NCBI GenBank assembly: GCA_964355675.1
Contig: CAYHEC010000010.1
Coordinates: 41,160 to 105,159 of the forward strand
From: an uncultured Caldithrix sp.
Lineage (GTDB): Bacteria; Electryoneota; AABM5-125-24; Hatepunaeales; Hatepunaeaceae
Direction of reading: 5' to 3'
DNA length: 64,000 bases
Below are positions 8,871 through 43,400 of the stretch, piece by piece (positions within the stretch are counted from its first letter, which is position 1; every line of letters starts with the position of its first letter). Under the pieces are notes generated by a model. The model ran no database searches. It had not been told where the DNA came from and saw only the letters and a program-made list of their open reading frames with translations. The translations under genes were made by a program, and so were the position numbers.

Positions 8871-9266
8871 TTATGCGCGTGCGATGATAATTATTCCAGC
8901 CAATATGACGAGAATTCCGGTAGCTTTGATCATATTGAAAGACTCATGAAATAATGGTACTGCCCCGGCTGTTACCAAGACAAAAGTCATTCCAACAAGA
9001 ATCGGGTAACTGGTGCTGATCTCAGCAATGGATAAAACTTTAAACCAGACTAGAGAAGCGATTCCATAGCAAATTATCCCTAAAACGAACACAGGTTGTA
9101 AAGCAAGCCGGAGCGCCATTTCCCAGGCTCCCCCAGAGAGTGTAAAGCCGCCGACCTTCAGCAGACCGTAGCGCATGGTCAAGTTTGCGGCCACGGTCAA
9201 TAAGGCGCTTATTACAATCAGGACGAATATCTGAAGAGTCAACCTATTTCGCCCGGTTTCGAACAT
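8871..9266 (-). CDS. Small 4-TM membrane protein, EamA/SMR-like (ArnE/ArnF-like flippase subunit candidate)
   Basis: Track ORF 8871..9344 overlaps the upstream gene by 100 nt; an internal Met (9266) gives a ~130-aa hydrophobic protein; family assignment is by architecture only. Confidence 0.45.
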   Translation of the reverse strand: MFETGRNRLTLQIFVLIVISALLTVAANLTMRYGLLKVGGFTLSGGAWEMALRLALQPVFVLGIICYGIASLVWFKVLSIAEISTSYPILVGMTFVLVTAGAVPLFHESFNMIKATGILVILAGIIIIARA

Positions 9267-23124: not shown

Positions 23125-24180
23125 TTAATTTAAGCTATCTCTCAAATAACTTTCGAGTGTTTTCTCTATGTCCGGTCGATGCCGTATATTATAGTAATGG
23201 CGCATTTTCAATATCTTCAACTGAAGCGTACTCAAACTACTCAGGATCCGGTAGTGGGTCACAATATCGGCTGAAGCGCCGCTTTGTGCCATGTGGTTTA
23301 TTGCCAATTCAGCAGTCTGGCGAGAGTTCGCTAACAATTCCCATAATGCGATTTTTGCCCAGAACTGTTGACGTTCCCATGAATACTCGGGATTGAGGAT
23401 TTTCCTGATTAGCCACCTGAGCCTTGCTTTCCCTCTTACTTCCTTTATATTCGATACCCATTCCCCAGTTATCGGCTCTTTCTTATAATAGTCAGGAAAG
23501 TACTTTGCCCTTACTCGATTTCCTTCAATCTGTGTAGAGGTCATACTATTTGCTGATAAAGAAACAAGATATAAAGGCTCAGCTATTTCATAACCATTTG
23601 CAACTTGCAATATTCTTATCCAGAGCGGTACATCACCCATAGTAAAATCTGTATCATAACCACCGACGCTCAAAGCTACTTTCCGGTCGAAAATCACTGT
23701 AGCATCACCAAATCGGCGTCTTTTGAAAAATTGTCCAGTTAACATTTCGACACTAAGTTTTCTGGATTTAAATCTATTCTGAAAGACCTCTTCAAAAATA
23801 TGATTAAAAGGGGTTAAATACATAAAGCCAGTACCGACCATTTTATATTCGGGATTTTCTTTTAAGAATGACATTTGTTTTTCGATTCGGAGTGGGAAAC
23901 TAATATCATCAGCATCCATTCGTGCAATCCACTCCGTTGTAGCATTATCCAAACCCCATTGTAAAGCTCCCTGAAATCCAACGGGACCCAATTCAAATAC
24001 TTTTACACGGTGATCTGTTAAGAAAGTGCGGGCAATTTCGGCAGTGTTATCCGATGATCCGTTCTCTAAAACCCATAATTCAAAATCAGAGAAGGTCTGA
24101 TTAAGAATACTCCGAATCGCTGGGCGTATCGTGGATTCGGCATTATGGGCAGGAAGGAAAACTGTTAATGCAGAATTAAT
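23125..24180 (-). CDS. GT2-family glycosyltransferase; conserved N-terminus lies upstream of the track ORF, candidate ATT start
   Basis: Track ORF starts at TTG 23991 inside the domain ('RMDADD' follows); in-frame upstream codons encode 'LTVFLPAHNAESTIRPAIRSILNQTFSDFELWVLENGSSDNTAEI' (GT2 N-terminal motif) back to TAA at 24241-24243, with no ATG/GTG/TTG. Confidence 0.65.
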   Translation of the reverse strand: MNSALTVFLPAHNAESTIRPAIRSILNQTFSDFELWVLENGSSDNTAEIARTFLTDHRVKVFELGPVGFQGALQWGLDNATTEWIARMDADDISFPLRIEKQMSFLKENPEYKMVGTGFMYLTPFNHIFEEVFQNRFKSRKLSVEMLTGQFFKRRRFGDATVIFDRKVALSVGGYDTDFTMGDVPLWIRILQVANGYEIAEPLYLVSLSANSMTSTQIEGNRVRAKYFPDYYKKEPITGEWVSNIKEVRGKARLRWLIRKILNPEYSWERQQFWAKIALWELLANSRQTAELAINHMAQSGASADIVTHYRILSSLSTLQLKILKMRHYYNIRHRPDIEKTLESYLRDSLN

Positions 24181-24250
24181 TTCTAATTCTCTGACCGAAC
24201 GAGGTTCAAATTGAATATTCGAAGAACTGAATATGAAGCCTTAAAATCAA

Positions 24251-25389: not shown

Positions 25390-26409
25390 TCATCTCCCAC
25401 GGTAAATGTTTTCGCTTTTTCCGTGTAGCTCCAAATCAAGAATCGCGATATCAGCATCAACCATCAGTTTGACCAGTTGATCAAATCGTATTTTTGGTTC
25501 CCAACCAAAATCTCGCTTTGCTTTCGACGCATCGCCGCATAGCAAATCAACTTCTGTCGGGCGAAAATAATTTGAGTCCACTTCCACGTAGTCCTTCCAA
25601 TCTAAATCGACATGGGAAAATGCCGCGTCCAAGAACTCCCTGATCGTGTGGGTTTCTCCGGTTGCACATATATAGTCGCCCGGATTATCTTGTTGCAGCA
25701 TCATCCACATCGCTTCGACATACTCAGGCGTATAACCCCAATCCCTTTTGGCGTCGAGATTGCCTAAATATAATTTTTTATCAAGTCCAGCCATGATTCG
25801 AGCCAGAGCTCGAGTGATTTTTCGCGTTACAAACGTTGGACCTCGTCGAGGAGACTCGTGGTTGAATAAAATGCCATTGCTGGCAAATATTCCGTATGCT
25901 TCGCGGTAATTCACCGTCATCCAATAGGCGTAAACTTTGGCAATTCCGTAGGGACTGCGTGGATAAAATGGGGTCGTTTCCTTCTGAGGAGTCTCGACCA
26001 CCTTACCAAACATCTCCGAGCTTGAGGCTTGATAAAAACGACATTTTAGGTTTGTCTCACGAATTGCTTCGAGTAGTCGGATAGTTCCCAGAGCGGTGAT
26101 ATCTCCAGTGTATTCAGGGATTTCAAAGCTAACCTTGACATGGCTTTGAGCGCCTAAATGATAGATTTCATCGGGTGAAAAGCGATACAAAAGTTTGATG
26201 AGACTGGTGGAATCGCTTAAATCAGCATAGTGGAGGAATAACTTGACGCCATTGATATGCGGGTCCCGGTAGAGATGATCGATGCGCTGAGTATTGAAGG
26301 TGCTGGCTCGACGGATGATTCCATGAACTTCATATCCCTTGTTGAGGAGGAACTCCGCGAGGTACGATCCGTCCTGTCCAGTGATTCCGGTGATTAAGGC
26401 TGTTTTCAT
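25390..26409 (-). CDS. gmd: GDP-mannose 4,6-dehydratase
   Basis: '[34 protein letters not shown]' is the classic Gmd N-terminus; 339 aa. Confidence 0.95.
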
Positions 26410-27611: not shown

Positions 27612-29699
27612 TTATCTAAATAGTAGCGAATCTATTTTTTGCGGTATCCTCCGGATACGCTTATATAATTTTCCATGTCTAATAGAACCATATGATAAAC
27701 CAAACCCTATATATTTCTGCGCAGGCACGCCGATCTTGTTGGATATTTTAGCATAATTTAAAATTGCCGTCGCGTGTTCTGCTAAACCTACCGACCACTT
27801 TCCGCCATCCCATTTAAGGTCTGTGCGGCAACCTTTTTGTTCAAATGCATTTGCCAGCTTGGGTTCGCGATTAATGTAGTACGAGATAACATATTCGAAA
27901 CTTTCCGGGTTCAGCCAAATATTGGGAGGTACATTACTCAAATCATTTAGTTCCTTGGCTAATTTCTCAGTAATTTGCCAATCTGATATAAACCGATAAT
28001 AACTCCTGCCTTTATTGTTATCGAGAATGTCGCGCTTTTTCTGCAAAGGTATTGTGCTTAAAATCGACTCATTTACAGTCGCAACCAATTGCAAGGCGGA
28101 AATAATTGATGTCTTAGTTAATTCCTCCAGTATGCGGTATTTGTTTTCGTCCATCGTAAACCATTCTTGCCTCAAGTTATCCACGAGAGCCGACGAATGT
28201 TCATGTTTATTTTCTACCGAAATACCAGACCGTTCAGCAAGTGAATAAGTGTATTTAAGACTATTTAACATACAAAGAAGGACTCGAATCCGGACGGGAC
28301 TACTATACGCAATCCAAATTATGTCATGCGGTATTTTTACTAATAAGTAATCTACCAACATACCGAAAAAGGCGCCTTGCGAAACTGACGACGATGAAAC
28401 ATCGCCTAAGTCTATTCCAGAAAGAAGCCTATAATTAAATATAGGAAATAGCTTTGGGAGTATTCCAATAGCACCTTCCGTGCAGACGTATGGTGGATGC
28501 GTCATGAGTAATCGAACCCATTGAGGAAAGTTTTCAGGCTTGTAATTTTGCCAGGTCAATTTCACATCGTCTGGGTACACAATCAAATAATCAAGGTCGG
28601 AAATGCCAGGTGCACCAACTTGTCCAATTTGATATATTGCAATCGGTTTTGGGGCAAGTGAGTTCCAGAATTTCGTTACAAGTTCAGTCGTTTCTTGATA
28701 ACGTTGGTCTTGAATTTGAAGAGGTAGATCAGTTACCGGGCGAGAGAAAACACGTGGACCAGGTTCCTTGGGAGCGACATCTCGTATTTTTGTTTGCATG
28801 CTATGGAGTAATGCAAGTACACGTCGCGGGAAATCTTCTCCTAAAACATTTTGAACATCGATGACTTGCTTACTATTTCGAGAATTCCGTCTTGCAATCT
28901 TTTGTAATAACGATGGACGATGAATTTGGAGCGCAAACCAAACTAATATCCGTGATGGCTTATGTCGCGGCCCAAGAGTTGCCCTTAAATTTGTCGCTAA
29001 TACTATTGGTTCCCATTCTTCTTTCGTGAAGTATTTTTCTGCGATAGGGAATGTGTCCCTTTTGTATCTAAATTCTCCTGTCATACGTTGGAGAAATAAG
29101 GCTGGTAAAATCATCAGATTCCCCAAGCAGTGTTCCACATCGTAATAATCTCTCATCATAAATGGTTTCGAACTCCAAGCATTGAAGTAACCAGAAAACA
29201 TTACAAGCATGGAATCTGTAATTTCGTTGGAAGGTACGACCATCACTTCGATTGGATCATTGGATTCAAAAAGATCAACGCCATAATTAAAGAGTATCAG
29301 TGGAAATTTCGCTTCTGGATAAGAGGACAACTCGCTTTGCATTAGATAATAGGGTTCATGATGCATAAAAGGATCGAAGGCATAAGTTAAGGCAAGAATC
29401 TCGCTACGAAGCTTATTATACTTACTCTGCATTCGCGTATCTGTTAAAGTCGAATCCTTCACAATAAACGTCAAATCTAAGTCGCTAAATCCTTCAACAT
29501 CATCAAGTGTCGCGACACTTCCATGAATAATCGCCCGTAAAAACAGATCTTTGTTTTGGTTTGCCAATTTATGCAACTTCCATACGGGCCAATATTTTGA
29601 CTGGCTGCCACCTCTGTCAAGCCATGATTGATAATTTGTGCCAGATGGAACTTGATGGATCATAATCTGTTTATCAGACTTATTCAACTTGCTTGCCAT
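27612..29699 (-). CDS. Uncharacterised protein with two Pol-beta-like nucleotidyltransferase-fold motifs
   Basis: 695 aa; 'HGSVATLDDVEGFSDLDLTFIV' and 'IGQVGAPGISDLDYLIVYPDD' both fit the G[GS]-x(9-13)-D-h-D-h nucleotidyltransferase signature; no closer family recognised. Confidence 0.4.
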   Translation of the reverse strand: MASKLNKSDKQIMIHQVPSGTNYQSWLDRGGSQSKYWPVWKLHKLANQNKDLFLRAIIHGSVATLDDVEGFSDLDLTFIVKDSTLTDTRMQSKYNKLRSEILALTYAFDPFMHHEPYYLMQSELSSYPEAKFPLILFNYGVDLFESNDPIEVMVVPSNEITDSMLVMFSGYFNAWSSKPFMMRDYYDVEHCLGNLMILPALFLQRMTGEFRYKRDTFPIAEKYFTKEEWEPIVLATNLRATLGPRHKPSRILVWFALQIHRPSLLQKIARRNSRNSKQVIDVQNVLGEDFPRRVLALLHSMQTKIRDVAPKEPGPRVFSRPVTDLPLQIQDQRYQETTELVTKFWNSLAPKPIAIYQIGQVGAPGISDLDYLIVYPDDVKLTWQNYKPENFPQWVRLLMTHPPYVCTEGAIGILPKLFPIFNYRLLSGIDLGDVSSSSVSQGAFFGMLVDYLLVKIPHDIIWIAYSSPVRIRVLLCMLNSLKYTYSLAERSGISVENKHEHSSALVDNLRQEWFTMDENKYRILEELTKTSIISALQLVATVNESILSTIPLQKKRDILDNNKGRSYYRFISDWQITEKLAKELNDLSNVPPNIWLNPESFEYVISYYINREPKLANAFEQKGCRTDLKWDGGKWSVGLAEHATAILNYAKISNKIGVPAQKYIGFGLSYGSIRHGKLYKRIRRIPQKIDSLLFR

Positions 29700-30969: not shown

Positions 30970-32124
30970 TTAGAAGAAATTATCCATAATGCCTTCAAGT
31001 ATGGTAAGCCTCCCATCGTTGACGGACTGATTGTTGCCTATATAGAAGGCGTTGGTGTGTAGGAAATCTGCGTTTTTAAATCCTTCGGCGTTATAGTGTT
31101 TCTTCAGGAAAGGTTGGCGCAGGAGGTTTCCGGCAACGAGTGGGCGGGACTCGATGCCAGCATCGGCAATAATCTTCTGAAACCTTTTCTTTTGTTCACA
31201 GTCCTTAAACAGAAATTGAAGAACAAAAGAGGATATCCCTTCGGATTCCGCTACAATAAGGGCGTCGCTATATTTCTTACATATCTCAACAAAACGGCTA
31301 TAGTTGCGATTCCTTATTTCAATGAATTGGTCTAATTTGTCAAGTTGTGTTAGACCCAAAACCGCGTGGAGTTCAGTGTTTCGAACATTGAACCCGTCGG
31401 TAAGAAATAGAAATTGAAAATCAATGTACGGATACTTAGTTTTGATGTCGTCATGGTATTCAATCGGCAGTTCGCGAGCCAGTCCATGCGACCTTTTCAA
31501 CAACAACAACCGGTATAATTCTTCGTTGTTGGTGCAGACCATGCCGCCTTCGACTGTAGTCATGTGGTGACCCCAGTAAAAGCTGAAGGTGCTGCCTATT
31601 CCGAAGTTCCCAACCTTTACCTTGTCAATAGTGGCTCCATTTGCTTCACAGCAATCCTCCATGATCAAAATGCCACGATCGCCGATGATTTTCTTGATGC
31701 GGGAAATGTTAGCTGGAAACCCGATCAGGTGAGTAATAAATATCGCTTTTGTTCTGTCGGTGATGCATTTCTGAAGCTGATCGTAATCAAAGGAGAAATC
31801 CTGAAGATTGACGTCAACAAAGACAGGTTTCAACCCGCTCTGCATTACCGGGGTAACATTGGTTGTCCATGTAACGGCGGGTACGACAACTTCATCGCCA
31901 TCATTCAAGCCATACATCTCCTTCAAAGCATTGATTAATACCAGATTGGCTGAACTGCCCGAATTGACAAACACGCTATACTTACATCCCTGCCATTTGG
32001 AATAGCGGTTCTCAAATTCTTTTACTTTTGAAAATTGAGTAAATCTGGTTGTTTCCCTGATAAAGGAGACAAGAGTGCTAAGGTCATCTTGACTCAATAT
32101 ATCTTCTTGTAGTTTCCAGAGCAA
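30970..32124 (-). CDS. DegT-family PLP/PMP-dependent sugar 3-dehydratase (ColD / E1-like)
   Basis: DegT-family motifs 'VNSGSSANLVL', 'GDEVVVPAVTWTTN'; the usual Schiff-base Lys is replaced by His in 'GSTFSFYWGHHMTTVEGG', the hallmark of ColD/E1 3-dehydratases. Confidence 0.75.
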   Translation of the reverse strand: MLWKLQEDILSQDDLSTLVSFIRETTRFTQFSKVKEFENRYSKWQGCKYSVFVNSGSSANLVLINALKEMYGLNDGDEVVVPAVTWTTNVTPVMQSGLKPVFVDVNLQDFSFDYDQLQKCITDRTKAIFITHLIGFPANISRIKKIIGDRGILIMEDCCEANGATIDKVKVGNFGIGSTFSFYWGHHMTTVEGGMVCTNNEELYRLLLLKRSHGLARELPIEYHDDIKTKYPYIDFQFLFLTDGFNVRNTELHAVLGLTQLDKLDQFIEIRNRNYSRFVEICKKYSDALIVAESEGISSFVLQFLFKDCEQKKRFQKIIADAGIESRPLVAGNLLRQPFLKKHYNAEGFKNADFLHTNAFYIGNNQSVNDGRLTILEGIMDNFF

Positions 32125-32186: not shown

Positions 32187-33137
32187 TCAAACCCTGATAT
32201 ATGGGTAATTGGCTACAAACCAATTAATGGTATTTTCAATTCCTTGTTCTATCTTAGTGTATTCGAAATTAGGAAGATATTTCGCCAATTTGGAAGTGTC
32301 GGCAGGTTTGCGGTATTGTCCATCAGACTTGGATGTATCCCAAATCACCTTACCCATAAATCCGATTTTTTCGACTATAGTTTCAATCAGATATTTTATC
32401 GTTACTTCTTCTCCAGTGGAGAAATTAATTGGGGTTTCTTCTTCGTAATATTTCAGTGCCCAAACGGCCAATTTGGCGGCGTCATCAGATAACAAAAACT
32501 CCCTTAATGGCGTCCCGCTCCCCCAGACAATAAAGTCCGTATTATTCTTTTTGGCTAAATAACACTTGTGAATTAGTGATGGAATAGCATGTCCATCTTC
32601 CAGATTCCAGTTATCATTTGGCCCGTACATGTTTGTTGGTATGGCAGTAATGAAATTGCAACCCCATTCGTTCCGGTATGCCCGACTCTGCACATCTAAC
32701 ATCCTTTTTGCATAGGAGTATCCATAATTAGACGGGTGGGGTTGACCGTCATGGATCGCCTCTTCTTTTAACGGGAAGGCAATATTATCGGGATAAACAC
32801 ATGTCGATAGAAAAGACATTAATTTATTTACCTTGATTAGGCGAGAGCATTCTAATACATTAGTATTTATCAATATATTGCTTCTATAGAATTCACCGAG
32901 ATGTGCCATATTTCCGCCCAATCCACCGACTCGAGCCGCCAAATGAATCACGCCTTCGGGATGGATATCCTTAATTATTTTTAAGGTTTCATCAAATTTC
33001 GTAAGGTCGGCATCCTTATGTGTGATAAATACAAAATTCGGGAGATTTAACCTCTGGATGGCGTGACCAACCAATCCATCTCCACCGGTCACTAAAATTC
33101 TACTCATTGATTGCTCCCTGATTGAGATTCCACTCAA
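32187..33137 (-). CDS. GDP-L-fucose synthase-like 3,5-epimerase/4-reductase (Fcl / ColC family)
   Basis: 'RILVTGGDGLVGHAI', 'LAARVGG', 'PTNMYGPNDNW', 'VWGSGTPLREFL' closely match the Fcl family. Confidence 0.8.
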   Translation of the reverse strand: MSGISIREQSMSRILVTGGDGLVGHAIQRLNLPNFVFITHKDADLTKFDETLKIIKDIHPEGVIHLAARVGGLGGNMAHLGEFYRSNILINTNVLECSRLIKVNKLMSFLSTCVYPDNIAFPLKEEAIHDGQPHPSNYGYSYAKRMLDVQSRAYRNEWGCNFITAIPTNMYGPNDNWNLEDGHAIPSLIHKCYLAKKNNTDFIVWGSGTPLREFLLSDDAAKLAVWALKYYEEETPINFSTGEEVTIKYLIETIVEKIGFMGKVIWDTSKSDGQYRKPADTSKLAKYLPNFEYTKIEQGIENTINWFVANYPYIRV

Positions 33138-34116
33138 TCGTTCGTTGTAAACCGTCTTTAAAAGAAATAAACTGCTTTATTTTAAATTCATTACACACTT
33201 TGCTTACGTCAAGCTTTACGATGCCCGGGGCATCCTTCATCATCTTTCCCGTGCCAGCTTCGCACGTTGCTCCATATACTTCAGCAATTAACTGGGCCAT
33301 TTCGTAAATAGATACGGTTTCTGTTGCCCCGACGTTATATAGTAACTCTTTTCCTTCAAGCATTATCTTGAACATCATAAATAGTGCGTCTGAAATATAA
33401 CAATACGAACGAAGATCTTTTCCTTCATCCATTAGTTTGATGTGCTTATCAATAAAGGCTTTTTTCATAAAGTTGCCCATCGCCCGTTCATCATGGATTG
33501 AAAGACCAGGTCCATAGACTAAGGCTACGCGTGCGATCTTGGCATCTACACCAAACTTTCGATTATAGATAAAGCACAGCGCTTCCCCGACTTTTTTAGA
33601 CTCAATATAAGAGGCTCTGCCACTTGAAGTCAGGGAATTTCCTGGATATGATTCCTTCGTCGGTATTTCATTCGGAGGCGGGTTTCCATAAACTTCACTG
33701 GTGCTAAGGAGAAGAAATTTTGCGTTATTTGCCTTGCTGATATCTAATAGGTCTTTGGTAGCGTTTACATTCAGTGAGATAGTTTTTAGTTCATCCCCCA
33801 AGAACATTTTTGGCCCGCTATAACAGGCGGAATGAATTACGAAATCAACAGGATGTGAAAATGAGAAGGGTTGTGAAAGGTCATGAGTGATATAATTAAA
33901 TCTATCATCCTTCCATACCGGAGGATTCTTACTGACACAATGTGCCATAATATTCGCATTATAATATTCATTAGCAGTACTTAACAAGTTCACTATGTAA
34001 TTTCCAATAAGTCCGTTACTGCCTGTTACGAGAAAACGTTTATCGAACAGTGCTTCGAAGTTGCCAAAATTCGTTAGCAGGTTTCGGCAATCTTCTCTAA
34101 TCAAGGTTGAATTCAT
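33100..34116 (-). CDS. NAD-dependent epimerase/dehydratase (UDP-glucuronate decarboxylase-like SDR)
   Basis: 'FLVTGSNGLIGNYI' Rossmann motif and 'YIESKKVGE' YxxxK motif; start taken at internal Met 34116, giving an ATGA stop/start overlap with the upstream gene. Confidence 0.7.
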   Translation of the reverse strand: MNSTLIREDCRNLLTNFGNFEALFDKRFLVTGSNGLIGNYIVNLLSTANEYYNANIMAHCVSKNPPVWKDDRFNYITHDLSQPFSFSHPVDFVIHSACYSGPKMFLGDELKTISLNVNATKDLLDISKANNAKFLLLSTSEVYGNPPPNEIPTKESYPGNSLTSSGRASYIESKKVGEALCFIYNRKFGVDAKIARVALVYGPGLSIHDERAMGNFMKKAFIDKHIKLMDEGKDLRSYCYISDALFMMFKIMLEGKELLYNVGATETVSIYEMAQLIAEVYGATCEAGTGKMMKDAPGIVKLDVSKVCNEFKIKQFISFKDGLQRTIEWNLNQGAINE

Positions 34117-35006
34117 ATTAGCCGTTCGATTTTGTTTTTTATTCCTGGCGCATCCAAGCCCAAGGCAGAACAATGCTGCTCATAGCTTCCATAGTTTGTC
34201 AGGAATTTGTCTTCTATCCCCAAACGAAACTGCCGGACATTTTCAAGACCTTCAAGCGCTCTGGACACTTCATCACCAAGTCCCCCGATAATGTTATGTT
34301 CTTCGATGGTTAGCACCTTGCCAGTTTTAATAGCGCTTTGCCTTATAAGCTCAATGTCCAGTGGTTTGATCGTATGAATGTAAATAATTTCTGCATCCAT
34401 TAATTTCGCTACTGTGATAACATCTTTAAGTTGAGGCCCCGTAACAATGATCGAAAGAGATTTACCTTCTTTAATCTTAATGCCTTCGCCAACCTTTATC
34501 TGGATCGAATCAAATTGAACGCCATGTTTTACCGCGGGTAATCTAAAATAGGTTGGATTGCAATTATTGTAAGTTTGTTTAAAAAGTTCATCGAACTCAA
34601 GCTCGGAGGTTGGATATACAATTTGCATCCCAGACAAGGGTTTTAAAATGGCAAAATCCTCATAACAGTGATGAGTACATCCGAGCGAAGCGTAATCAAA
34701 TGCTGAACCGACGCTAATTATGCTGGCGCCTAACTTTTGATAGCAAAGATCTACTTTGATTTGTTCATAACATCTTTCGAGAATGAAAGGCGCAATGCTG
34801 TGCACTACAGGATACATGCCAGTTGCCGATAAACCAGCCGCCATGCTGATAATTGTTTGCTCGCAAATTCCCAAGTTGTAAAATCGTTCGGGATGTTTAT
34901 TTTGAAAATTCCGTAATAGAAATACACTGATATCGCCCATCAATACGACTAATTTTTCGTCAAAATCGCCGACAGCTTCAATTGTCCGAGAAAATTGATT
35001 TCTCAC
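34113..35006 (-). CDS. Transketolase, C-terminal (pyrimidine-binding) subunit of a split transketolase
   Basis: Pyrimidine-binding and C-terminal regions recognisable; ~300-aa size typical of split TktB-type subunits. Confidence 0.8.
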   Translation of the reverse strand: MRNQFSRTIEAVGDFDEKLVVLMGDISVFLLRNFQNKHPERFYNLGICEQTIISMAAGLSATGMYPVVHSIAPFILERCYEQIKVDLCYQKLGASIISVGSAFDYASLGCTHHCYEDFAILKPLSGMQIVYPTSELEFDELFKQTYNNCNPTYFRLPAVKHGVQFDSIQIKVGEGIKIKEGKSLSIIVTGPQLKDVITVAKLMDAEIIYIHTIKPLDIELIRQSAIKTGKVLTIEEHNIIGGLGDEVSRALEGLENVRQFRLGIEDKFLTNYGSYEQHCSALGLDAPGIKNKIERLI

Positions 35007-35827
35007 TCCAATTCCTTCAGGATGACCTTTAATTCTTCCTCAGTTGGGCTCCTGTGGTGCCAAGTGAAGCCGTTGTTTTCCAAAGTCTTCGATCCTTTCC
35101 CTTTTACCGTGCGAGCGATTACCATTGAAGGTCTATCCGTTTTACAGTTTGAAATAGTTCTAAAGGTTTGTTTCAGCTCATTGATATCATGGCCGTTGAC
35201 ATCATAGACTTTCCAGCCAAACGCTGACCATTTTTCGACCGGGTTAGTAATTGGCAAGCACCTGCTGGTTGATTCATTCAAATCTAAAATTCCAATAAAA
35301 TTATTCAATTTACAATTTGCGGCAACCATAGCGGTTTCCCAGATAGTTCCTTCGTTACACTCTCCATCACCGATCAGAGAATAAACATAATTGGGTTTAC
35401 ATTTTATTTTCATGCTTAACGCGATACCGGCAGCGAATGGAAAACCGTGTCCGAGGGATCCAGTGGAAGCCTCGACTCCCGGAACTTTGTTTCTATCGGG
35501 GTGTCCGCCGAGTGGGCTGTCATATTTACCGAAAGTGATAAGATCATTCTCGGAAATATATCCTGCCTTTTGTAATACCGCATACAAAGCAACGGAAGCA
35601 TGACCTTTACTGAGAATAAAATAATCTCTATCCTCCCAATCCGGGTTTTCCGGGTGATATTTCAGCACATCCTTATAGAGAACAGTCAGTATATCCACGA
35701 TCGAGAAAGAGCTGGGGATATGACCTTCTTTTGCTTCAAAACACAATTTCAGAATTGATTTTCTGATTTCGATTGGATTTATCATTTTAGAGCAATATTT
35801 GGAAAACCGTGAGCGTTTACGGACCAT
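35003..35827 (-). CDS. Transketolase, N-terminal TPP-binding subunit
   Basis: 'GHASVALYAVL' and TPP-binding 'GDGECNEG' motif; overlaps partner subunit by 4 nt. Confidence 0.85.
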   Translation of the reverse strand: MVRKRSRFSKYCSKMINPIEIRKSILKLCFEAKEGHIPSSFSIVDILTVLYKDVLKYHPENPDWEDRDYFILSKGHASVALYAVLQKAGYISENDLITFGKYDSPLGGHPDRNKVPGVEASTGSLGHGFPFAAGIALSMKIKCKPNYVYSLIGDGECNEGTIWETAMVAANCKLNNFIGILDLNESTSRCLPITNPVEKWSAFGWKVYDVNGHDINELKQTFRTISNCKTDRPSMVIARTVKGKGSKTLENNGFTWHHRSPTEEELKVILKELE

Positions 35828-35839
35828 CTCTTGAAATAC

Positions 35840-36657
35840 TTAAGATAATTTGCTTTTAAATCTTTCCATTTCAATAAATATTGAATCTCTACCATTATCA
35901 TAAACCATTAAATAATTTAAGCTTGATAAGTAATTATTGATATTATGATAGTTATAATGGACCGTCTCCACAATCAGAAGACTTGGACGGTATTTTCCCC
36001 AATCATTACTCTTCAATACTTCTAATTCATATCCTTCAACATCTATTGACATAAAATCAATAGTGTCAGATGGTTTCAAGTATTTTTCTAAAATATTAGA
36101 TAAAGGTGCCACTTCGACTTCTATTGTTTTTATGGCGGAAGCTTTATGCCAGATAAATGATTTTCTGCCATTTTATTATTGAAAGAAGATCCGTTACTAA
36201 ATCCTTCTATCATATAAAAATCAGCTTTGCCCAACATTGGACCAATGCCAATGTTCAGATTAATATCTTCTGGCCTAGCCTCAACTAGTTTATTAAAAGG
36301 ACTTAATTGTGGTTCAATGTTAATTCCTCGCCAGCCTTTTAAGTAGAACCTAGTAGCATGAGAAGGAAACTCGTTGGGATCATTGGCTCCTATCTCAACA
36401 TAATACCCATGACTCTTAAAATCTAGGAGAAAATCTATCAACAGATCCTCATGATCATAACCATCATAAGATCCGAAAACCTTATGTATGAATTTTTTGC
36501 CTCTCCCAGAAAAGTCATTATAGTTCGGATCATTGCATTCCTCAGCGTTTTTTGCCAGAATGTTTTTTGCCAGAATAGACTTTATTTTCCTCAAGATTCT
36601 GACAATTAGAGGTGGTATAAAATCTAATAGTGTAATGTGTTTGTTAAAGATCTTCAT
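35840..36657 (-). pseudogene. FkbM-family methyltransferase interrupted by a frameshift (two ORFs 36130..36657 and 35840..36112)
   Basis: Upstream ORF carries 'YYVEIGANDPNEF' (SAM-binding), downstream ORF carries 'IDFMSIDVEGYELEVL' (FkbM C-terminal motif); the two are in different frames, junction near the A5 run around 36127-36131. Confidence 0.55.
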
Positions 36658-36792: not shown

Positions 36793-38067
36793 TTATTTTA
36801 AACTTAAGCTCCAATTTGTCCCACCCAGAACACAGCTAAAATGCCTCGCTACTGCGCCATAGCGTGCCATTGTGGAACCGGTTTCTATGATGTTAAAACT
36901 TGAAACATTTTTACGTGTATCAATGCTTAGCTTGTTTGGATTGTGTGCAGAAATATAAACAGTATACATGTCAGGGACAAGAAAGTTCTCCCTTATCCGA
37001 ATGGTTGCTTGATACAAACCGGGCTTAAGTTCCACAAACGCCTTATTATTTCCATCAGATAAACTACTAAATAATACATTAACATCATTAGAATTAGATA
37101 ACATAAAAGTGATTTCAGTATCTGTAGTGTGGCGCAATACTCTGAATTCAAGTCCAATCATAAACGGATTCAGAACATCTATATCCGCGCTCAGATTACC
37201 TTGATGGTCAGTTATCCAAACTTTTGTAAAGGATACGTTGGCGTCCAATTGAGGAACCAACGTAACAACTTTAGTTGTTTCTACTCTTTTATCAGTTATA
37301 TACTGGCTTATAATATCAGATACTACTCCAGTACCAGATATTCTGCCATTATCAAGTAATATCGCTTGAGTACACAATGACCGTACCGCTCCCATATTAT
37401 GACTCACAAACAGCACCGTCCGACCCTCGTGCGCGACTTCTCCCATTTTCCCAAGGCATTTTTTCTGAAACTCAACATCGCCAACGGCGAGTACTTCGTC
37501 AATAACAAGTATCTCCGGGTCCAGATGCGCCGCCACCGCGAATGCCAGGCGCACCTTCATGCCCGACGAATACCGCTTGACAGGAGTATCGATAAATTGC
37601 TCAACGCCGGAAAAGTCAACAATCTCATCGAACTTTCTGGTCACTTCAGCTTTTGTCATTCCAAGGATCGCGCCATTCAGAAATACATTCTCCCTACCCG
37701 TCAATTCCGGGTGAAATCCAGTCCCGACCTCAAGCAAAGCCCCGATTCGTCCTTTTATCTTGATCTCACCTGAGGTTGGCGCAGTTATATGTGAGATGAT
37801 TTTTAATAATGTTGACTTACCAGAACCATTCTTGCCGATAATGCCGAGTACCTCACCTTGATTAACTTCAAAGTTTATATCGCGCAACGCCCAGATGTAT
37901 TCGCCGCTCTTGTTGCCATGATCCATCTCGCCGATTTTTAGCAGTGGGTCAGGTTTGCCTCTCGCTCTCGCCCACCAGCGACTAAGGTCTCCTGACAATG
38001 TACCTCCCCCGATAAGTCCCAATTTATAGAACTTAGAGAGGTTTTCGACCTTGATAACGACACTCAT
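36793..38067 (-). CDS. ABC transporter ATP-binding protein for glycan export (Wzt/TagH/KpsT-like) with C-terminal extra domain
   Basis: Walker A 'GKNGSGKST', signature 'YSSGMKVRLAFA', Walker B 'ILVIDEV'; ~180-aa C-terminal extension as in Wzt carbohydrate-binding domains. Confidence 0.9.
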   Translation of the reverse strand: MSVVIKVENLSKFYKLGLIGGGTLSGDLSRWWARARGKPDPLLKIGEMDHGNKSGEYIWALRDINFEVNQGEVLGIIGKNGSGKSTLLKIISHITAPTSGEIKIKGRIGALLEVGTGFHPELTGRENVFLNGAILGMTKAEVTRKFDEIVDFSGVEQFIDTPVKRYSSGMKVRLAFAVAAHLDPEILVIDEVLAVGDVEFQKKCLGKMGEVAHEGRTVLFVSHNMGAVRSLCTQAILLDNGRISGTGVVSDIISQYITDKRVETTKVVTLVPQLDANVSFTKVWITDHQGNLSADIDVLNPFMIGLEFRVLRHTTDTEITFMLSNSNDVNVLFSSLSDGNNKAFVELKPGLYQATIRIRENFLVPDMYTVYISAHNPNKLSIDTRKNVSSFNIIETGSTMARYGAVARHFSCVLGGTNWSLSLK

Positions 38068-38107: not shown

Positions 38108-38959
38108 TCAAATTGTGTCCTCGAAAGTCCGTTCGACGCGGTTAAACAACGAGATTCCGATCAGAAGGATAGTGATAGACATCACAGCGCTATAGGAAAG
38201 ATAAATTAAATCAGCTTTACCGGCTCCTAAGAAGGCATAACGGAAAGTCTCGATCACTGGCGCCATCGGGTTGGCAACAACAATCCACTTGTATCGTTCG
38301 GGAATGCTCGACACCGGATAAATCACTGGCGTCGCATACATGAACAGGTGAATTCCAAAAGTCACCAAAAATCTTAAATCGCGGTAACGAATCGTCAACG
38401 AGGAGACGATTATGCCTAAGCCCAATCCGAGACTACCCATGATGATCAGAAGAACGGGAGTAAGTAAAATCCAAATATTCGGAGATACGCTGGCTCCGTT
38501 GATCAGAAAATAGATGAGAAAACCAATGAAAAAAAGGAACTGAATTCCGAAGGCTATAATATTAGAAATTACAATACTTACAGGCATTACGAGCCGTGGG
38601 AAATATACTTTGCCGAAGATGGCGGAATTTGCAAGAAATGTTTCCGCTGATTTGGTGATAACATTTGAGAAGTATGTCCAGGCGACCGTGCCAGACATAT
38701 AGAAAAGGAAGGGCGGCAGTCCATCAGTGGATAACTTCGCAACCTTGCCGAATATAATAGTGAACACTACGGACGTCAACAACGGCTGAATTATGTGCCA
38801 GAGCGGGCCGAGAATTGTCTGTTTGTACTGCGCCACAAAGTCGCGCCGCACAAATAGCGATACCAAATCTCTGTAGCGCCACAATTCTTTAAGACGAAGA
38901 TCAAACCACTTGCCCCGTGGCTGAATTACCGTCGTCCACTCAGTCTGGGTTTCCATCAT
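38108..38959 (-). CDS. ABC-2 type permease for glycan export (Wzm/TagG/KpsM-like)
   Basis: 283 aa, six hydrophobic segments, 'RDFVAQYKQTILGPLWHIIQP' N-terminal motif typical of ABC-2 permeases; adjacent to the ATPase. Confidence 0.85.
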   Translation of the reverse strand: MMETQTEWTTVIQPRGKWFDLRLKELWRYRDLVSLFVRRDFVAQYKQTILGPLWHIIQPLLTSVVFTIIFGKVAKLSTDGLPPFLFYMSGTVAWTYFSNVITKSAETFLANSAIFGKVYFPRLVMPVSIVISNIIAFGIQFLFFIGFLIYFLINGASVSPNIWILLTPVLLIIMGSLGLGLGIIVSSLTIRYRDLRFLVTFGIHLFMYATPVIYPVSSIPERYKWIVVANPMAPVIETFRYAFLGAGKADLIYLSYSAVMSITILLIGISLFNRVERTFEDTI

Positions 38960-39088: not shown

Positions 39089-39970
39089 TTAGTTTTCCAC
39101 ATCATAAGTACTCAGTATATTTTCTAATTCTGATAGAAGTTGTCGTAATGAATCGAGAGAGTCATAACGAAGACTTATGCGGTTTTTAAAGATGTGGACA
39201 GAATCATTAGCTTTGGCGAATTGTTTTAGTTCGGGCAGGACATCCCATTTCTCGTTTGGGTTCCTCTTTTGTTTGCGACGGATAATTTCGTCATCGATCA
39301 ATTGCTTGAATTGCTCCAAGTCAAGGCTGGCGCCTCTCAAGATCAGCTTTGCCCTAAGGCGCTCAATAGGAATCTTCGATAATGCCAGCGCTTTCTTCAA
39401 TGAAAGGGTCTTGTCGGCGATTGCCTTTTTCAGGTCCGCTGGTAGAAGCAAGAGTGATAAGCGATCATTCACAAAAGACGCAGACTTACCGATTTTGGTG
39501 GCAATATCCCGGTAGGTTAATCCAAGTTGTTCGATTAATTGCTTGATGGCTCTGGCTTCCTCCATCGGTTCCAAGTCAGAGCGTTGCAAGTTCTCTATCA
39601 GGGAATATAGAAGGAAATCTTCTTGTGACAGATCTAACACAATACAAGGAACAGCTGTCAATTCTGCGCGCTTGGCCGCTTCCAATCTACGGTGACCAGC
39701 AATCAGAATATAGTGCTTGCGACCTTTGCGAATAACCAGCAAAGGCTCAAGGACCCCAACGTCTTTTATTGAGGCGGTGAGCTCATCAAGCGAGCGTTGG
39801 TCGTTCTCAACCCGTAGTGGAAATGAATTGGGGTAAAGAAATCCAATCGGCATCAGTTGGGCGTTCTGAAGAGGTTCAGGTTTGTTCGATGGAAGAGTTT
39901 GACCGAACGCTTCATGAAGTTCAGGCGCCTGCAGACCTATTGCAGGATTGTTATCAGGGTCGTAAGGCAA
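39089..39970 (-). CDS. ParB/Spo0J-family protein (ParB N-terminal CTP-binding domain + HTH), orphan
   Basis: 'LEPLLVIRKGRKHYILIAGHRRLEAAKRA' (GxRR box) and HTH-like 'LTYRDIATKIGKSASFVNDRLSLL'; no ParA gene in the window. Confidence 0.8.
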   Translation of the reverse strand: MPYDPDNNPAIGLQAPELHEAFGQTLPSNKPEPLQNAQLMPIGFLYPNSFPLRVENDQRSLDELTASIKDVGVLEPLLVIRKGRKHYILIAGHRRLEAAKRAELTAVPCIVLDLSQEDFLLYSLIENLQRSDLEPMEEARAIKQLIEQLGLTYRDIATKIGKSASFVNDRLSLLLLPADLKKAIADKTLSLKKALALSKIPIERLRAKLILRGASLDLEQFKQLIDDEIIRRKQKRNPNEKWDVLPELKQFAKANDSVHIFKNRISLRYDSLDSLRQLLSELENILSTYDVEN

Positions 39971-40418: not shown

Positions 40419-43400
40419 ATGAAAACGATCACTGGAATGCTACTCGCAGTAGTTCTTGTTTTGGTGGTGCCGCAGTTCGGTTTCGCCAGAATAATCAACG
40501 TCCCCGAAGAAAATCAGACTATTCAGGCGGCTATTAATACTGCAGAAGCAGGAGATACCGTTCTGGTTCAGCCGGGAATATACGGTGAAAATATTCTTTT
40601 TAACGGAATCGATATTGTCGTTGGCAGTCTGCTCCTGACGACCGGCGATCATGCTTATATCGACTCGACAATTATTGATGGAAACGCCAGCGCATCGGTT
40701 GTTAGAATCCGTACTGGTGAAACTGATGCTACTGTATTAACAGGCTTTACGATTATTAACGGCAGAGCAAATTATGGCGGCGGAGTTTATATTAACGCCG
40801 CCAGCCCGACACTCGATCATCTCATTATAACTCGAAATCACGCGATCAGAGACGGCGGCGGGATTTACTGCACGCATAACGCCAATCCCATTTTTAAACA
40901 TTTGACCGTGTCAGCCGATACTGCCGAACGGAGTAACGGCGGTCTGTTTACCTTTGATAATTCTTCAGCCACTATAATCAACTCCATCTTCAGGAGTAAC
41001 ATCCCTATCGGAACTCCTGCAGGACAAACGATTACCTTTTCCAACATTCAAAATGGTTACGCCGGACAGGGCAATATAAACAGTAATCCCCTCTTCGTCG
41101 ATCCGGGAAATGGTAACTTCCATCTGCAAGAAAATTCGCCGTGTATCGACGCTGGCGATCCGAATTCGCCTCCCGATCAAGATGAGTCTCGCGCTGATAT
41201 AGGGGCTTTTTATTTTGACCAGACTCCCTATCCGCGTATAGTTGCCTCGCATGACTCATTGGACTTCGGAGGCGTTCTTCCCGGTGCAGAACTTGCCAGA
41301 ATAATTACAATTATTAATCAAGGCGACGCCGACCTAATCGTTCAGCATCCCACGACCGACGGCGAACCTTTCCATGCCGATCCGGAGGATTGGGAGTCCG
41401 TTACTCTCGAACCGTTAGATACGCTCGAAGCCGAAGTTTTTTTCGCTCCAACCGAAATCGGGGATTTCGTGGGGCATTTCATCATCGAATCAAATGACCC
41501 TGATAACGAGACTCTTGATATAATACTCATCGGAAGTGGTGCTGTCCCGATCATAGCCGTAGCTTCTGATTCGCTTGATTTTGGTGTTGTTTTAATTGAT
41601 AATAGCTCCGAACTGCCTCTCGTCGTGAGCAATAATGGGGGAGCCGATCTGACAATAAGCGACGCCAGCGTTCAAGGAGATAACTACTCGATTGATTTTG
41701 GTGGTGAGTTTACCGTTCATCCCGATGAATCTGCTGAGATAATTGTCACATTTTCCCCGTCAGAAGCAGGCGGCTTCGATGGGGAAGTCACGATCACTTC
41801 TGATGATCCAGAGAATGCCGAAATGACTGTGGCCCTGGTCGGAGTCGGCAGAGAGCGAACCATCACAGAATTAGGGGCAATCGATACGCCGGGACAAGCG
41901 CTGGGAGTTGCTATCGTTGGATCTCTTGCACTCTTGTCCGACGGTCAGGGCGGTCTTCGAATAATCGATTATTCCGATCCTGCTAATCCTGCCGAAATTA
42001 GCTCCATCGAAACGCCGGGCAACGCCAGAGATATTGTTGTAGTAAATGGTTTAGCTTTTATCGCTGATGAGGAAAGCGGGCTGAGGATGATTGATTTCTC
42101 CGATCCCGAGCATCCTGCCGAAGTCTGGACGTTCGACACGCCCGGTCGGGCTTATGGAGTTGCGGTTGTTGGTTCGTTTGCTTATGTAGCCGATTACGAG
42201 GGAGGGCTCCGTATCGTAGATATTTCTGACCCCGAATCTCCCCATGAAGTAGGGGCATCCGAAACGAACGGCAATGCTCGAGCGGTAGCCATACTCGGTG
42301 ATTATGCGTACATAGCCGCGGAAGAGGGTGGCTTGGAAATAATCGATATTTCTGATCCGGAAAGTCCCCACCGAATTGGTTCTGTCGAAACTCCGGGGAG
42401 TGCCTATGGAATTATAGCTCGGGGAGGTTATGTTTATGTGGCCGATGGAGATAATGGTCTTTGTGTGATCGATGTTTCCACACCTGCTAACCCATCAGTA
42501 ATTACCAGCTACAACACGCCGGGGATTGCGTCCAACGTCACATCGACAGGTGAATTGATCTACGTTGCTGATTCGACCACTGGTATTCAAGTGATTAATA
42601 TAGCTGATCTTGAAAATATTGAAACGGTTGGTACATTCAACACGCATGCCGAAGCTTGTGATATTGCCATTCTTGGCGACTACTGTTTCGTCGCCGATGG
42701 AGAAAGCGGACTTCATGTATTGGACGTCTCGGAGATTGCTCAATACCCGGTTGTTTCCGTCACCCCAGAGGCGCTGAGGTTTCAGCGTACCGTTACCGGC
42801 TATAGTTCAGATATCACGTTGACAATCCATAATCGCGGTAATTGTACGTTGAATATTTTCGCGGTAGCGGTCGAGGGAAATTACTTCGAAAGTGAAATCG
42901 CAAATCCGGTGGCGATTGAGCCAATGGAGAGCTATGATTTGGCAGTTACTTTCACTCCGGAAGAAGCCGGCGATTTTGCTGGAACGCTAACAATTATTTC
43001 GGATGATCCATACCAACCTCACAAGCAAATCTCGTTGTCGGGAAGCGGGCTGGTCTTTGATCTTATCGAAGAGACCGGTTCACTCTTAGAGTTTTTCGCC
43101 GGAACTGAAGATGGATGCGCGTATGACAACTGGGTAAGCCATATCTCCGAGGGGGTTGCCCGAGACGGTTACAACGAATACTGTCCTCCGGAACTTGACC
43201 GGCAGACGAACGGCTTCGGCTCATTTACGATAATCGATAGTCTCGAAAATCCGGACGAAATAACCGCGAGTTGGTATGAGATATTTTCCAGCCTGTATCA
43301 TGGGGACATCGAAACCGCACGCGTAACCCTTGCTCTATCAAGTTTCAGCGATAAGTATCAGATAGTTCGTCTCGAAGATGGTGAGAAGAACTATGTAATC

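Follow-up and report, generated by a model that had tools for sequence, protein, structure and literature searches.

Within a 64,000-nucleotide stretch of DNA (the window, to which all coordinates refer), we find, in an ABC-transporter-type surface-glycan locus of an uncultured bacterium, one minus-strand operon containing a two-subunit transketolase, TK-N and TK-C, that belongs by its sequence to a large subfamily of non-canonical split transketolases. Active-site residues and the analogy with the YerE/YerF system suggest that the pair most likely transfers a two-carbon unit onto an NDP-keto-sugar, and the adjacent FkbM-family methyltransferase gene carries a genuine single -1 frameshift, most likely a recent loss-of-function mutation. 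We regard this explanation as a whole, two-carbon transfer together with recent loss of FkbM, as evenly balanced between right and wrong.

A split transketolase in a surface-glycan operon

The operon reads wzm, wzt, fkbM (broken), tkN, tkC, sdrA, sdrB and a colD-like gene, followed by glycosyltransferases and gmd (Table 1). TK-N and TK-C are adjacent ORFs that overlap by 4 nt (GTGA) and carry their Pfam domains in the arrangement of a split-gene transketolase; the TK-C stop overlaps the sdrA start codon (ATGA), and sdrA overlaps sdrB by 8 nt. An earlier note on this DNA had described a split transketolase inside a glycan locus, and both parts of that description hold, with nucleotide-sugar and glycan genes on the flanks. 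TK-N probably starts at Met15 (position 35785), giving a protein of 260 aa that matches its relatives (257–263 aa).

Table 1 Features of the locus, in window coordinates.
Feature	Position	Strand	Evidence
wzm, ABC-2 permease of polysaccharide exporter	38108..38959	-	PF01061 ABC2_membrane, E 7.2e-18
wzt, ABC ATPase	36793..38067	-	PF00005, E 1.1e-24
FkbM N-terminal fragment, 175 aa, ends TAA 36132-36130	36130..36657	-	PF05050 positions 1-76
Perfect 15-bp tandem duplication in FkbM N-fragment (AKNIL-AKNIL)	36547..36576		TRF period 15, 2.0 copies, 100% match
Frameshift zone, sole stretch with both FkbM frames open	36133..36172	-	Frame bookkeeping
FkbM C-terminal fragment, 90 aa from GTG 36112	35840..36112	-	PF05050 positions 101-172, E 4e-11
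TK-N, ThDP/PP-domain subunit, 274 aa	35003..35827	-	PF00456 Transketolase_N, E 1.7e-42
TK-C, Pyr + C-terminal-domain subunit, 297 aa	34113..35006	-	PF02779 Transket_pyr, E 2.2e-20; PF02780 Transketolase_C, E 6.1e-16
sdrA, UXS/ArnA-like extended SDR, 338 aa	33100..34116	-	PF01370; gene call in L001
sdrB, GDP-fucose-synthase/ColC-like SDR, 306 aa	32187..33107	-	NCBIfam GDPFucSynFcl, 235 bits, below 500 cut-off; gene call
ColD-type sugar 3-dehydratase	30970..32124	-	PDB 2GMS (ColD), 253 bits
Gmd, GDP-mannose 4,6-dehydratase	25390..26409	-	TIGR01472, 535 bits, above 415 cut-off

The ATPase encoded by wzt continues at its C terminus into a region of weak similarity to the glycan-binding domain Wzt_C (PF14524, 28.9 bits, just under the 30.4 cut-off), and its NCBIfam matches are teichoic-acid and galactan export ATPases. 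Gmd is the predicted source of a 4-keto-6-deoxy precursor. The ColD-type protein, whose top NCBIfam match is RfbH, has a DegT fold in which the Schiff-base (PLP-binding) Lys is replaced by His: its motif SFYWGHHMTTVEGG aligns with SFYSHHIATMEGG of ColD, the GHH within SFYWGHHMTTVEGG lying opposite the SHH of ColD. The top PDB match of sdrA is human UDP-glucuronate decarboxylase (127 bits); it retains STSEVYG and YxxxK, and its GPR motif has become GPG, so that the carboxylate-binding Arg is lost. Members of the sdrB protein cluster (17) adjoin the transketolase module in other loci too. A similar order of methyltransferase, TK-N, TK-C and DegT genes is found in the wps-2 EPS cluster of Actinoplanes missouriensis (AMIS_56700-56750), a Wzx/Wzy polysaccharide cluster compared here by gene order and published domain annotation alone (PMC13390465).

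Active-site replacements and the non-canonical subfamily

An alignment of TK-N to E. coli TktA, whose residue numbering we use throughout, shows that H26, H66, H100, G114, L116, D155 of GDG-D155, N185 and H261 are kept, and TK-N thus combines the ThDP/Mg motif of canonical transketolases, GDG(X)nN, with their four histidines of the PP domain (His26, His66, His100 and His261). TK-C keeps R358, E411 and H473, and Ser385 aligns; the window shares the cofactor-activating Glu411 and His473 with all 119 relatives of the subfamily set (P0122-P0240). Judged by these residues, the pair retains all that is needed for binding and activating ThDP and for holding the dihydroxyethyl-ThDP intermediate.

In transketolase, Arg358, Ser385, His461 and Arg520 bind the sugar phosphate, and Asp469 recognises the C2-OH of the acceptor. 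TK-C departs from canonical transketolase (EC 2.2.1.1) in both respects, with H461 replaced by Gly, D469 by Leu (the GEDG motif reading ASLG) and R520 by Ala. Gly461 is universal among the relatives (119/119) and Leu469 nearly so (109/119), and none of the 119 has Arg520, while canonical split transketolases (L013, L024, L051) and TktA keep His461, Asp469 and Arg520. The canonical signature occurs in about 35 of 80 GTDB split-transketolase loci, and nine of the ten GTDB loci with glycan-type neighbours fall in the Gly461 class.

The best PDB matches point to the split transketolase of Carboxydothermus hydrogenoformans, with TK-N scoring 225 bits to its N-chain (6YAK) and TK-C only 144 bits to 6YAJ. 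Like this enzyme and TktA, the pair conserves GDG...N, Glu411 and His26, 66, 100, 261 and 473, and, as in the split enzyme, its domains are divided between two chains, PP on one and Pyr plus C on the other. It differs from both in the three replacements, in an altered S-x-S-T loop around Ser385, and in lying among nucleotide-sugar genes to which it is translationally coupled.

Relatives in the subfamily occupy glycan loci in many phyla, where the same UXS-like SDR gene usually follows them and genes for Gmd, a ColD-type 3-dehydratase and an Fcl/ColC-like SDR often lie alongside. In 16 related loci (~12 distinct), from bacteria and an archaeon-labelled contig, TK-N and TK-C occur together with sdrA, which holds the +1 position behind TK-C, and each of these is a glycan locus. 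A housekeeping role is therefore unlikely, because the phosphate-binding residues are lost subfamily-wide and the relatives lie in glycan loci.

We accordingly give a slim chance to an ordinary pentose-phosphate transketolase that supplies sedoheptulose-7-phosphate for heptose, or that is present by chance, even though the window contains a GT9 (heptosyltransferase-family) gene, the related locus L088 has genes of the kinds expected in heptose synthesis (GHMP-kinase, SIS and nucleotidyltransferase), and TK-N is 40–49% identical to housekeeping split transketolases. The canonical split transketolases keep His461, Asp469 and Arg520, which are lost across the subfamily; moreover, translational coupling ties the pair to NDP-sugar SDRs, the module is restricted to glycan loci, and GmhA and HddA were not found among the scanned window ORFs of at least 150 aa. 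The signature of Gly461, Leu469 and no Arg520 offers a practical rule against misannotating such pairs as pentose-phosphate transketolases in metabolic reconstructions.

Predicted two-carbon transfer to a nucleotide sugar

In the most likely reading, hydroxypyruvate or a ketose would donate a two-carbon (glycolaldehyde) unit, and the pair would join this unit to a nucleotide-activated keto-sugar at its carbonyl. The acceptor would most likely be the product of Gmd and the ColD-type dehydratase, GDP-4-keto-3,6-dideoxymannose, or alternatively a 4-keto sugar made by the coupled UXS-like SDR, and one or more SDRs would then reduce or epimerise the product to a hydroxyacetyl- or dihydroxyethyl-branched deoxysugar. 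We infer donor, acceptor and product alike from sequence. The earlier note had likewise proposed two-carbon transfer onto a sugar in place of a housekeeping role, a prediction that the active-site signature, the coupling to SDR genes and the conserved glycan neighbourhood support.

Such a route would put a transketolase in the part that YerE/YerF play in yersiniose synthesis. YerE-type ThDP enzymes branch NDP-3,6-dideoxy-4-ketohexoses in LPS (PMC12247030). The logic proposed for the pair is that of YerE/YerF in yersiniose A synthesis, where a 4,6-dehydratase and a PMP-dependent 3-dehydratase yield an NDP-3,6-dideoxy-4-ketohexose whose C4 receives a short carbon unit from the ThDP enzyme before an SDR reduces the side chain (PMC12247030). 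A 4,6-dehydratase and a 3-dehydratase co-occur in the window, and do so again in L087, L088, L089 and L094. Gmd-like, Fcl/ColC-like and His-type ColD-like genes all accompany the module in the window, L087, L089/90/98 and L094; L088/L097 combine it with Gmd-like and His-type ColD-like genes but no Fcl-like gene, and L172 has the transketolase pair with Fcl-like and His-type genes but no sdrA.

The two systems differ in their enzymes, YerE belonging to the decarboxylase (AHAS-like) ThDP superfamily and using pyruvate, and the pair to the transketolase superfamily, so that the unit transferred here would be hydroxyacetyl or dihydroxyethyl. The nucleotide is probably GDP for the window (Gmd/ColD), as against CDP for YerE systems. 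We considered and rejected membership of the YerE superfamily (decarboxylase/AHAS-like, TPP_enzyme_N/M/C), the Pfam domains being Transketolase_N, Transket_pyr and Transketolase_C; TPP_enzyme_C matched the pair only below threshold (21.2 bits). Though outside that superfamily, the pair may act like YerE. To our knowledge, YerE-type enzymes are the only ThDP enzymes known to branch cell-surface sugars, and branching of the transketolase type is so far a proposal for two nucleoside antibiotics.

[quoted passage not shown] These enzymes and those of 13 Streptomyces BGCs resemble the pair, by description only, in their predicted keto-sugar acceptor (PMC12247030), but they belong to actinomycete secondary-metabolite clusters, whereas the subfamily described here occupies cell-surface glycan loci in many uncultured lineages.

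The pair could instead extend a chain without branching it, adding the C2 unit to an NDP-sugar aldehyde (for example a 6-aldehyde or a pentodialdose) whose ketone product sdrA would reduce to a heptose- or octose-type sugar. Aldehydes are the usual acceptors of transketolase, the clade of sdrA, UXS/ArnA, acts on NDP-uronic acids by oxidation and decarboxylation, and several loci carry the module without Gmd or ColD (L092, L099, L100, L175). We nevertheless consider chain extension unlikely: sdrA has lost the carboxylate-binding Arg, the Asp that reads the aldose C2-OH is gone, and His-type 3-dehydratases, which would make a ketone acceptor, recur beside the module.

Split transketolase-like enzymes make glycolyl-ACP in tetrahydroisoquinoline antibiotic pathways, a precedent for a pair that makes an activated glycolyl or glycolaldehyde unit for N- or O-glycolyl acylation of an amino sugar. 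Several aminotransferases and NeuB/NeuC/NeuA amino-sugar genes lie within the locus; however, the pair has no coupled ACP, lipoyl carrier or acyltransferase, and its invariant partner is an NDP-sugar SDR. Glycolyl supply therefore seems to us very unlikely.

Within the preferred reading of two-carbon transfer to a keto-sugar, the acceptor leaves some latitude. Gmd, ColD and the Fcl-like SDR by themselves make up a complete GDP-colitose pathway, and the transketolase/sdrA module could therefore act on an unrelated sugar. Relatives that are 45–57% identical sit in a different cassette (C-methyltransferase, short SDR, Zn-ADH and E1 alpha/beta genes), so the acceptor may differ across the family. 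More broadly, and with a little less than even confidence, we propose from these sequences that the TK-N/TK-C/SDR trio is a widespread C-C bond-forming module acting on nucleotide sugars, in which a re-tooled transketolase (Gly461, Leu469, no Arg520) would move a glycolaldehyde unit onto NDP-keto-sugars, so that many uncultured bacteria, candidate-phyla organisms and archaea would have undescribed hydroxyacetyl-/dihydroxyethyl-branched or two-carbon-extended deoxysugars in their surface glycans. If true, this sequence-defined subfamily in glycan loci would represent a new route to branched or extended sugars, predict sugar structures so far unseen in environmental microbes, and supply biocatalysts for hydroxy-functionalised tertiary alcohols.

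The frameshift in the FkbM gene

The FkbM-family gene consists of two ORFs in different frames, where a functional member would be a single uninterrupted one. The N-terminal fragment corresponds in alignment to the first two thirds of intact homologues, scores 185 bits against an HMM of such homologues and on its own scores 20.2 bits on PF05050, under the 22.7 cut-off. The C-terminal fragment lies in the -1 frame relative to it, in a frame open from 36172, and scores 114 bits against the same HMM. Joined, the halves match positions 1–172 of the 173 in PF05050 at 80 bits and TIGR01444 at 49.8 bits, above its 37.7 cut-off. The homologues are intact single ORFs of 260–294 aa, up to 54% identical, and besides the single -1 shift the gene has no further lesion and no other stop codons. 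The split into two frames noted earlier is thus borne out.

Since both frames are open only in the frameshift zone, the lesion must lie there. Candidate sites are an A4 run (36164-36161), A_AAG (36145-36142) and the GC-rich 8-mer CTTCCGCC (36141-36134); the homologue HMM gives no finer position, every repair scoring 317–319 bits. The earlier note had placed the split near an A5 run (T5 on the plus strand, 36127-36131), which cannot be the site because it overlaps the stop codon: it covers the last two bases of the N-frame TAA and runs 3' of it, outside the permissive zone, and the gain or loss of an A at this point would not remove the stop.

The same split is found at 100% identity in contigs from runs ERR3856787, ERR3856788 and SRR6684601, and also in the ENA SPAdes assembly ERZ4201064, which agrees with the window at all but 2 of 20,825 bases; copies of the region are essentially identical across all available contigs. 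Because it is shared by contigs of three runs and a separate ENA assembly, the split did not arise as an error of assembly. An artefact of sequencing or assembly, including the homopolymer error considered earlier, is extremely unlikely despite low coverage in one assembly (contig name cov 6.6) and the AT-rich character of the gene (32% GC): the contigs were built separately, and the zone where an error would have to be has no run longer than 4 nt.

Expression of the gene by a low-level -1 ribosomal shift at ATA AAG (the A_AAG site), or a population-variable, contingency-like site, would also fit two halves that are intact apart from the shift. A -1 slip of tRNA-Lys from AAG to AAA would give ...SGIK|ASAIKTIEVEV..., leading into the conserved C-terminal half, and the 15-bp slippage duplication, which is absent from homologues and appears as an insertion in the alignment, shows that the gene is prone to replication slippage. 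However, as read from the sequence, the zone contains no X_XXY_YYZ heptamer, the downstream RNA (MFE -8.3 kcal/mol, z = -0.73 against shuffled sequences) forms no stimulatory structure, and no relative among the matches listed has the shift, the best being single ORFs over 97–100% of the joined query. The longest homopolymer in the zone, A4, is too short for phase variation, and all recovered contigs carry one allele. We therefore assign a low probability to a gene that is still alive in either way; of the slippery site raised earlier, the A_AAG tetranucleotide leaves a weak possibility, otherwise without support.

A recent inactivating mutation is most likely, because a slippery heptamer, a stimulatory structure and a long repeat are all lacking, and of the options in the earlier note a genuinely broken gene is the best reading. 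Loss of FkbM would remove a methyl decoration from the glycan, a small, clean case of decoration loss in an uncultured organism, seen in separately sequenced runs. In Vibrio cholerae O1, spontaneous mutations including frameshifts inactivate the methyltransferase gene wbeT/rfbT, changing the antigen from Ogawa to Inaba (PMC3727987, PMC5051702). The families differ, since the window gene matches PF05050 (FkbM) and PF05575 (RfbT) was not detected in it, but wbeT/rfbT too encodes a methyltransferase that decorates an ABC-transporter-exported O-polysaccharide and is lost by mutation (PMC3727987, PMC5051702).

Active site of the split transketolase

The two subunits of the split transketolase, TK-N and TK-C, match transketolase Pfam families far beyond chance (Transketolase_N, 1.7e-42; Transket_pyr, 2.2e-20; Transketolase_C, 6.1e-16). 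Alignment of both subunits to E. coli TktA from MG1655, whose numbering is used here, shows that TK-N retains His26, His66, His100, Gly114, Leu116, Asp155 of the GDG motif, Asn185 and His261, while TK-C retains Arg358, the cofactor-activating Glu411 and His473. TK-C is substituted at His461 (to Gly), Asp469 (to Leu, with GEDG becoming ASLG) and Arg520 (to Ala). In transketolases, the substrate phosphate is bound by His461 together with Arg520, and the C2 hydroxyl of the acceptor is read by Asp469. We conclude that the pair probably remains competent for ThDP catalysis, with the donor chemistry of a transketolase and an acceptor/phosphate site that has been rebuilt, and that it is unlikely to be a pentose-phosphate enzyme.

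The same pattern extends to relatives at 52-76% identity, in which Gly461 is invariant (119/119), Leu469 is present in 109 of 119 and Arg520 in none of the 119. Dehalococcoidia and archaea have canonical split transketolases with His461, Asp469 and Arg520 in place, and in a GTDB scan of split-transketolase loci (80 species representatives) ~35 carry this canonical signature and ~18 belong to the Gly461 class (Gly461, mostly Leu469, no Arg520), with no relative closer than 49% identity. Glycan-type neighbours (wzt, Gmd-like, DegT, NeuC or sdrA-like genes) were found in ten of these GTDB loci, nine of them of the Gly461 class. A housekeeping enzyme is a weaker rival explanation of the pair. Among solved structures, the nearest is that of the split transketolase from C. 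hydrogenoformans, matched at 225 bits by TK-N and at only 144 bits by TK-C.

A second non-canonical class, with Ser461 and Leu469 but Arg520 kept, was seen in Paenibacillus, Cohnella, Bacteroidales and others (GTDB loci L010, L017, L020, L022, L025, L029, L037, L052, L058 and L085).

Operon structure and conserved neighbourhood

The genes considered here all lie on the minus strand in a single, tightly packed operon, with overlaps between TK-N and TK-C (GTGA), TK-C and sdrA (ATGA), and sdrA and sdrB (8 nt). As listed, TK-N exceeds its relatives (257-263 aa) by 11-17 residues; translation probably begins in fact at Met15 (ATG at 35785), in which case the fkbM C fragment and TK-N would be 55 nt apart.

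Genes of the operon and the associated Gmd gene, in 5' to 3' order
Gene	Position	Strand	Length	Description
wzm	38108-38959	-		ABC-2 permease; first in 5' to 3' order
wzt	36793-38067	-		ABC ATPase
fkbM N fragment	36130-36657	-	175 aa	FkbM-family methyltransferase
fkbM C fragment	35840-36112	-	90 aa	FkbM-family methyltransferase
TK-N	35003-35827	-	274 aa (as listed)	split transketolase subunit
TK-C	34113-35006	-	297 aa	split transketolase subunit
sdrA	33100-34116	-	338 aa	extended SDR, UXS/ArnA-like
sdrB	32187-33107	-	306 aa	extended SDR, GDP-fucose-synthase/ColC-like
colD-like	30970-32124	-	384 aa	DegT-fold protein
Gmd	25390-26409	-		after the glycosyltransferases downstream of colD-like

The window at large is a big glycan locus that also encodes GT2, GT4 and GT9 proteins, a Wzy_C protein, NeuB/NeuC/NeuA, AsnB and more aminotransferases. 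No housekeeping marker was found among the window ORFs scanned. The Wzt C-terminal domain gives a sub-threshold match (28.9 bits). A search of the related loci for a homologue of the downstream 695-aa protein (27612-29699), as a possible recurring glycosyltransferase or polymerase, found none. One GT2 gene (23125-24240, minus strand) is open from 24240 with the conserved N-terminal motif LTVFLPAHNAESTIRPAIRSILNQTFSDFELWVLENGSSDNT in frame, and its first ATG/GTG/TTG comes not before 23991, leaving only ATT (24180, 24216) and ATA (24234); it has either a non-canonical start or a lost start codon. Overlapping ORFs at 8871-9777, considered as a further frameshift, are two normal genes. Beyond the operon, with a ParB-like gene (39089-39970) in between, lies the gene for a 2829-aa secreted protein (40419-48908, plus strand) with LVIVD repeats, HYDIN/VesB-like Ig domains and a Por_Secre_tail sorting domain of type IX secretion, which suggests that the organism has a type IX secretion system.

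Close TK-C relatives were looked up and metagenomes scanned; clustering of the ORFs called in 89 loci revealed two gene contexts, A and B. Context A, which includes the window, comprises 16 loci (~12 distinct) in which an sdrA orthologue directly follows TK-N and TK-C, often with a Gmd-like SDR, an Fcl/ColC-like SDR and a DegT-fold protein close by. The DegT-fold proteins adjoining the module carry His in place of the Schiff-base Lys in the window and in loci L087, L088/L097, L089/90/98, L094 and L172, and are therefore sugar 3-dehydratases, not aminotransferases; the window protein matches ColD at 253 bits, its GHH aligned to the SHH of ColD. The window Gmd scores 535 bits against a cut-off of 415, and with a genuine Gmd and a ColD-type 3-dehydratase the locus is predicted to be able to make GDP-4-keto-3,6-dideoxymannose. 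SdrA is nearest to human UDP-glucuronate decarboxylase (127 bits) and has the UXS/ArnA decarboxylase signature STSEVYG and YxxxK, with GPG in place of GPR, as also in the sdrA orthologue of L092. The Arg of the GPR motif holds the uronate carboxylate in UXS/ArnA enzymes.

Context B holds most relatives at 45-57% identity. Here, the transketolase pair is flanked upstream by a C-methyltransferase (PF08421) and a short-chain SDR, and on the other side by small methyltransferases, a Zn-ADH, E1 alpha/beta genes and B12-radical-SAM genes, so that each locus has two kinds of ThDP enzyme pair. Distant subfamily members with this cassette include L093, L101-L104, L108, L114, L127, L139, L149, L155, L161-L164 and others.

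Candidate reactions and acceptors

The earlier note had proposed two-carbon transfer onto a sugar by the split transketolase; this gains new support from the residue pattern, operon coupling and neighbourhood, all of them direct observations, but is still unproven. Hydroxypyruvate or a ketose would be the donor from which the pair forms dihydroxyethyl-ThDP; the dihydroxyethyl unit would then be added to the carbonyl of a keto-sugar activated by a nucleotide, and the coupled SDR(s) may reduce or epimerise the product. The best candidate acceptor would be the ColD product, which would make the pair a transketolase-superfamily analogue of YerE/YerF; alternatively, sdrA itself may generate the keto-sugar from a common NDP-sugar. 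The ColD-product model is weaker for two reasons: a full colitose pathway is already formed by Gmd, ColD and the Fcl-like SDR, and the TK/sdrA module is also present in L092, L099, L100 and L175, loci that have no Gmd or ColD. We give C2 transfer onto an NDP-keto-sugar roughly an even chance of being correct, and the two acceptor models share this chance about equally. Weaker rivals to it are that the pair extends a sugar chain or donates a glycolyl unit.

YerE/YerF add an acetyl unit to CDP-3,6-dideoxy-4-ketoglucose, and ThDP-dependent branching in LPS is the work of YerE-like enzymes of the decarboxylase superfamily (PMC12247030). For miharamycin and amipurimycin, hydroxyacetyl transfer by split-gene transketolases has been proposed, not proven, and a bioinformatic survey found 13 further split transketolases, all in Streptomycetes (PMC12247030). 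A comparable gene order (methyltransferase, TK-N, TK-C, DegT) occurs in an Actinoplanes missouriensis EPS cluster, with no function assigned there (PMC13390465). The literature yielded no characterised split transketolase for an O-antigen, capsule, EPS or other surface-glycan locus, only unannotated mentions and one review. The subfamily is a lead, open to testing, towards sugar-modifying chemistry of a new type.

Additionally, a D-2-hydroxyacid dehydrogenase gene (PGDH or glyoxylate/hydroxypyruvate-reductase-like; 21125-22111) lies between neuB and neuC, and its relatives adjoin other split-transketolase pairs in L012 and L030; as speculation, it might supply hydroxypyruvate for the donor.

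The frameshifted fkbM gene

The split of fkbM into two frames is borne out by the Pfam matches: the N fragment covers PF05050 positions 1-76 and the C fragment, in the -1 frame, 101-172, while the joined halves match 1-172 of 173 (80 bits) and exceed the TIGR01444 cut-off. Homologues (identity up to 54%) are intact single ORFs of 260-294 aa within polysaccharide loci, and none among those listed bears the same shift. An assembly or homopolymer sequencing error, one of three explanations raised earlier, is very unlikely, since Logan contigs of three runs (ERR3856787, ERR3856788 and SRR6684601) carry the split and match at 100% identity, and the ENA assembly ERZ4201064 (2 of 20,825 bases differ from the window) carries it too; the split is a genuine mutation.

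The C frame is closed by a TAA at 36175-36173 and the N frame by a TAA at 36132-36130, placing the shift within 36133-36172, where both frames are open. The A5 run at 36127-36131, previously taken as its site, overlaps the N-frame stop and the following bases, and an A gained or lost there would not fuse the frames. As for a slippery site, the permissive zone contains no slippery heptamer and no homopolymer longer than 4 nt, and the RNA downstream is not more stable than shuffled sequence (z = -0.73); low-level -1 slippage is kept as a possibility only by an A_AAG tetranucleotide. Two kinds of lesion are candidates: loss of a single nt, for instance in the A4 at 36164-36161 or at ATA AAG, or gain of a GC-rich 8-mer, CTTCCGCC, at 36141-36134. 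Removal of the 8-mer gives exact homologue spacing, although this case cannot be told from a 1-nt deletion. An HMM built from 42 intact homologues was used to score all 1-nt insertions and all 2-, 5- and 8-nt deletions as repairs; throughout the permissive zone the scores were 317-319 bits, showing that the loop is too variable for the HMM to choose among lesions.

Because both halves are otherwise intact, the best reading is the pseudogene option, through a recent, single inactivating mutation. A similar case is known from V. cholerae O1, where Inaba strains have lost the terminal-methylating wbeT/rfbT (PMC3727987, PMC5051702); on its own, the frameshift is ordinary.

The GC content is 32% in fkbM (35840-36657), ~39-40% across the whole 32-38 kb stretch and 44% in the window overall, values that fit horizontal acquisition of the glycan genes. 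The N fragment also contains a perfect 15-bp tandem duplication at 36547-36576 (GTTTTTTGCCAGAAT twice, encoding AKNIL-AKNIL) that is absent from homologues and is a second replication-slippage event in fkbM.
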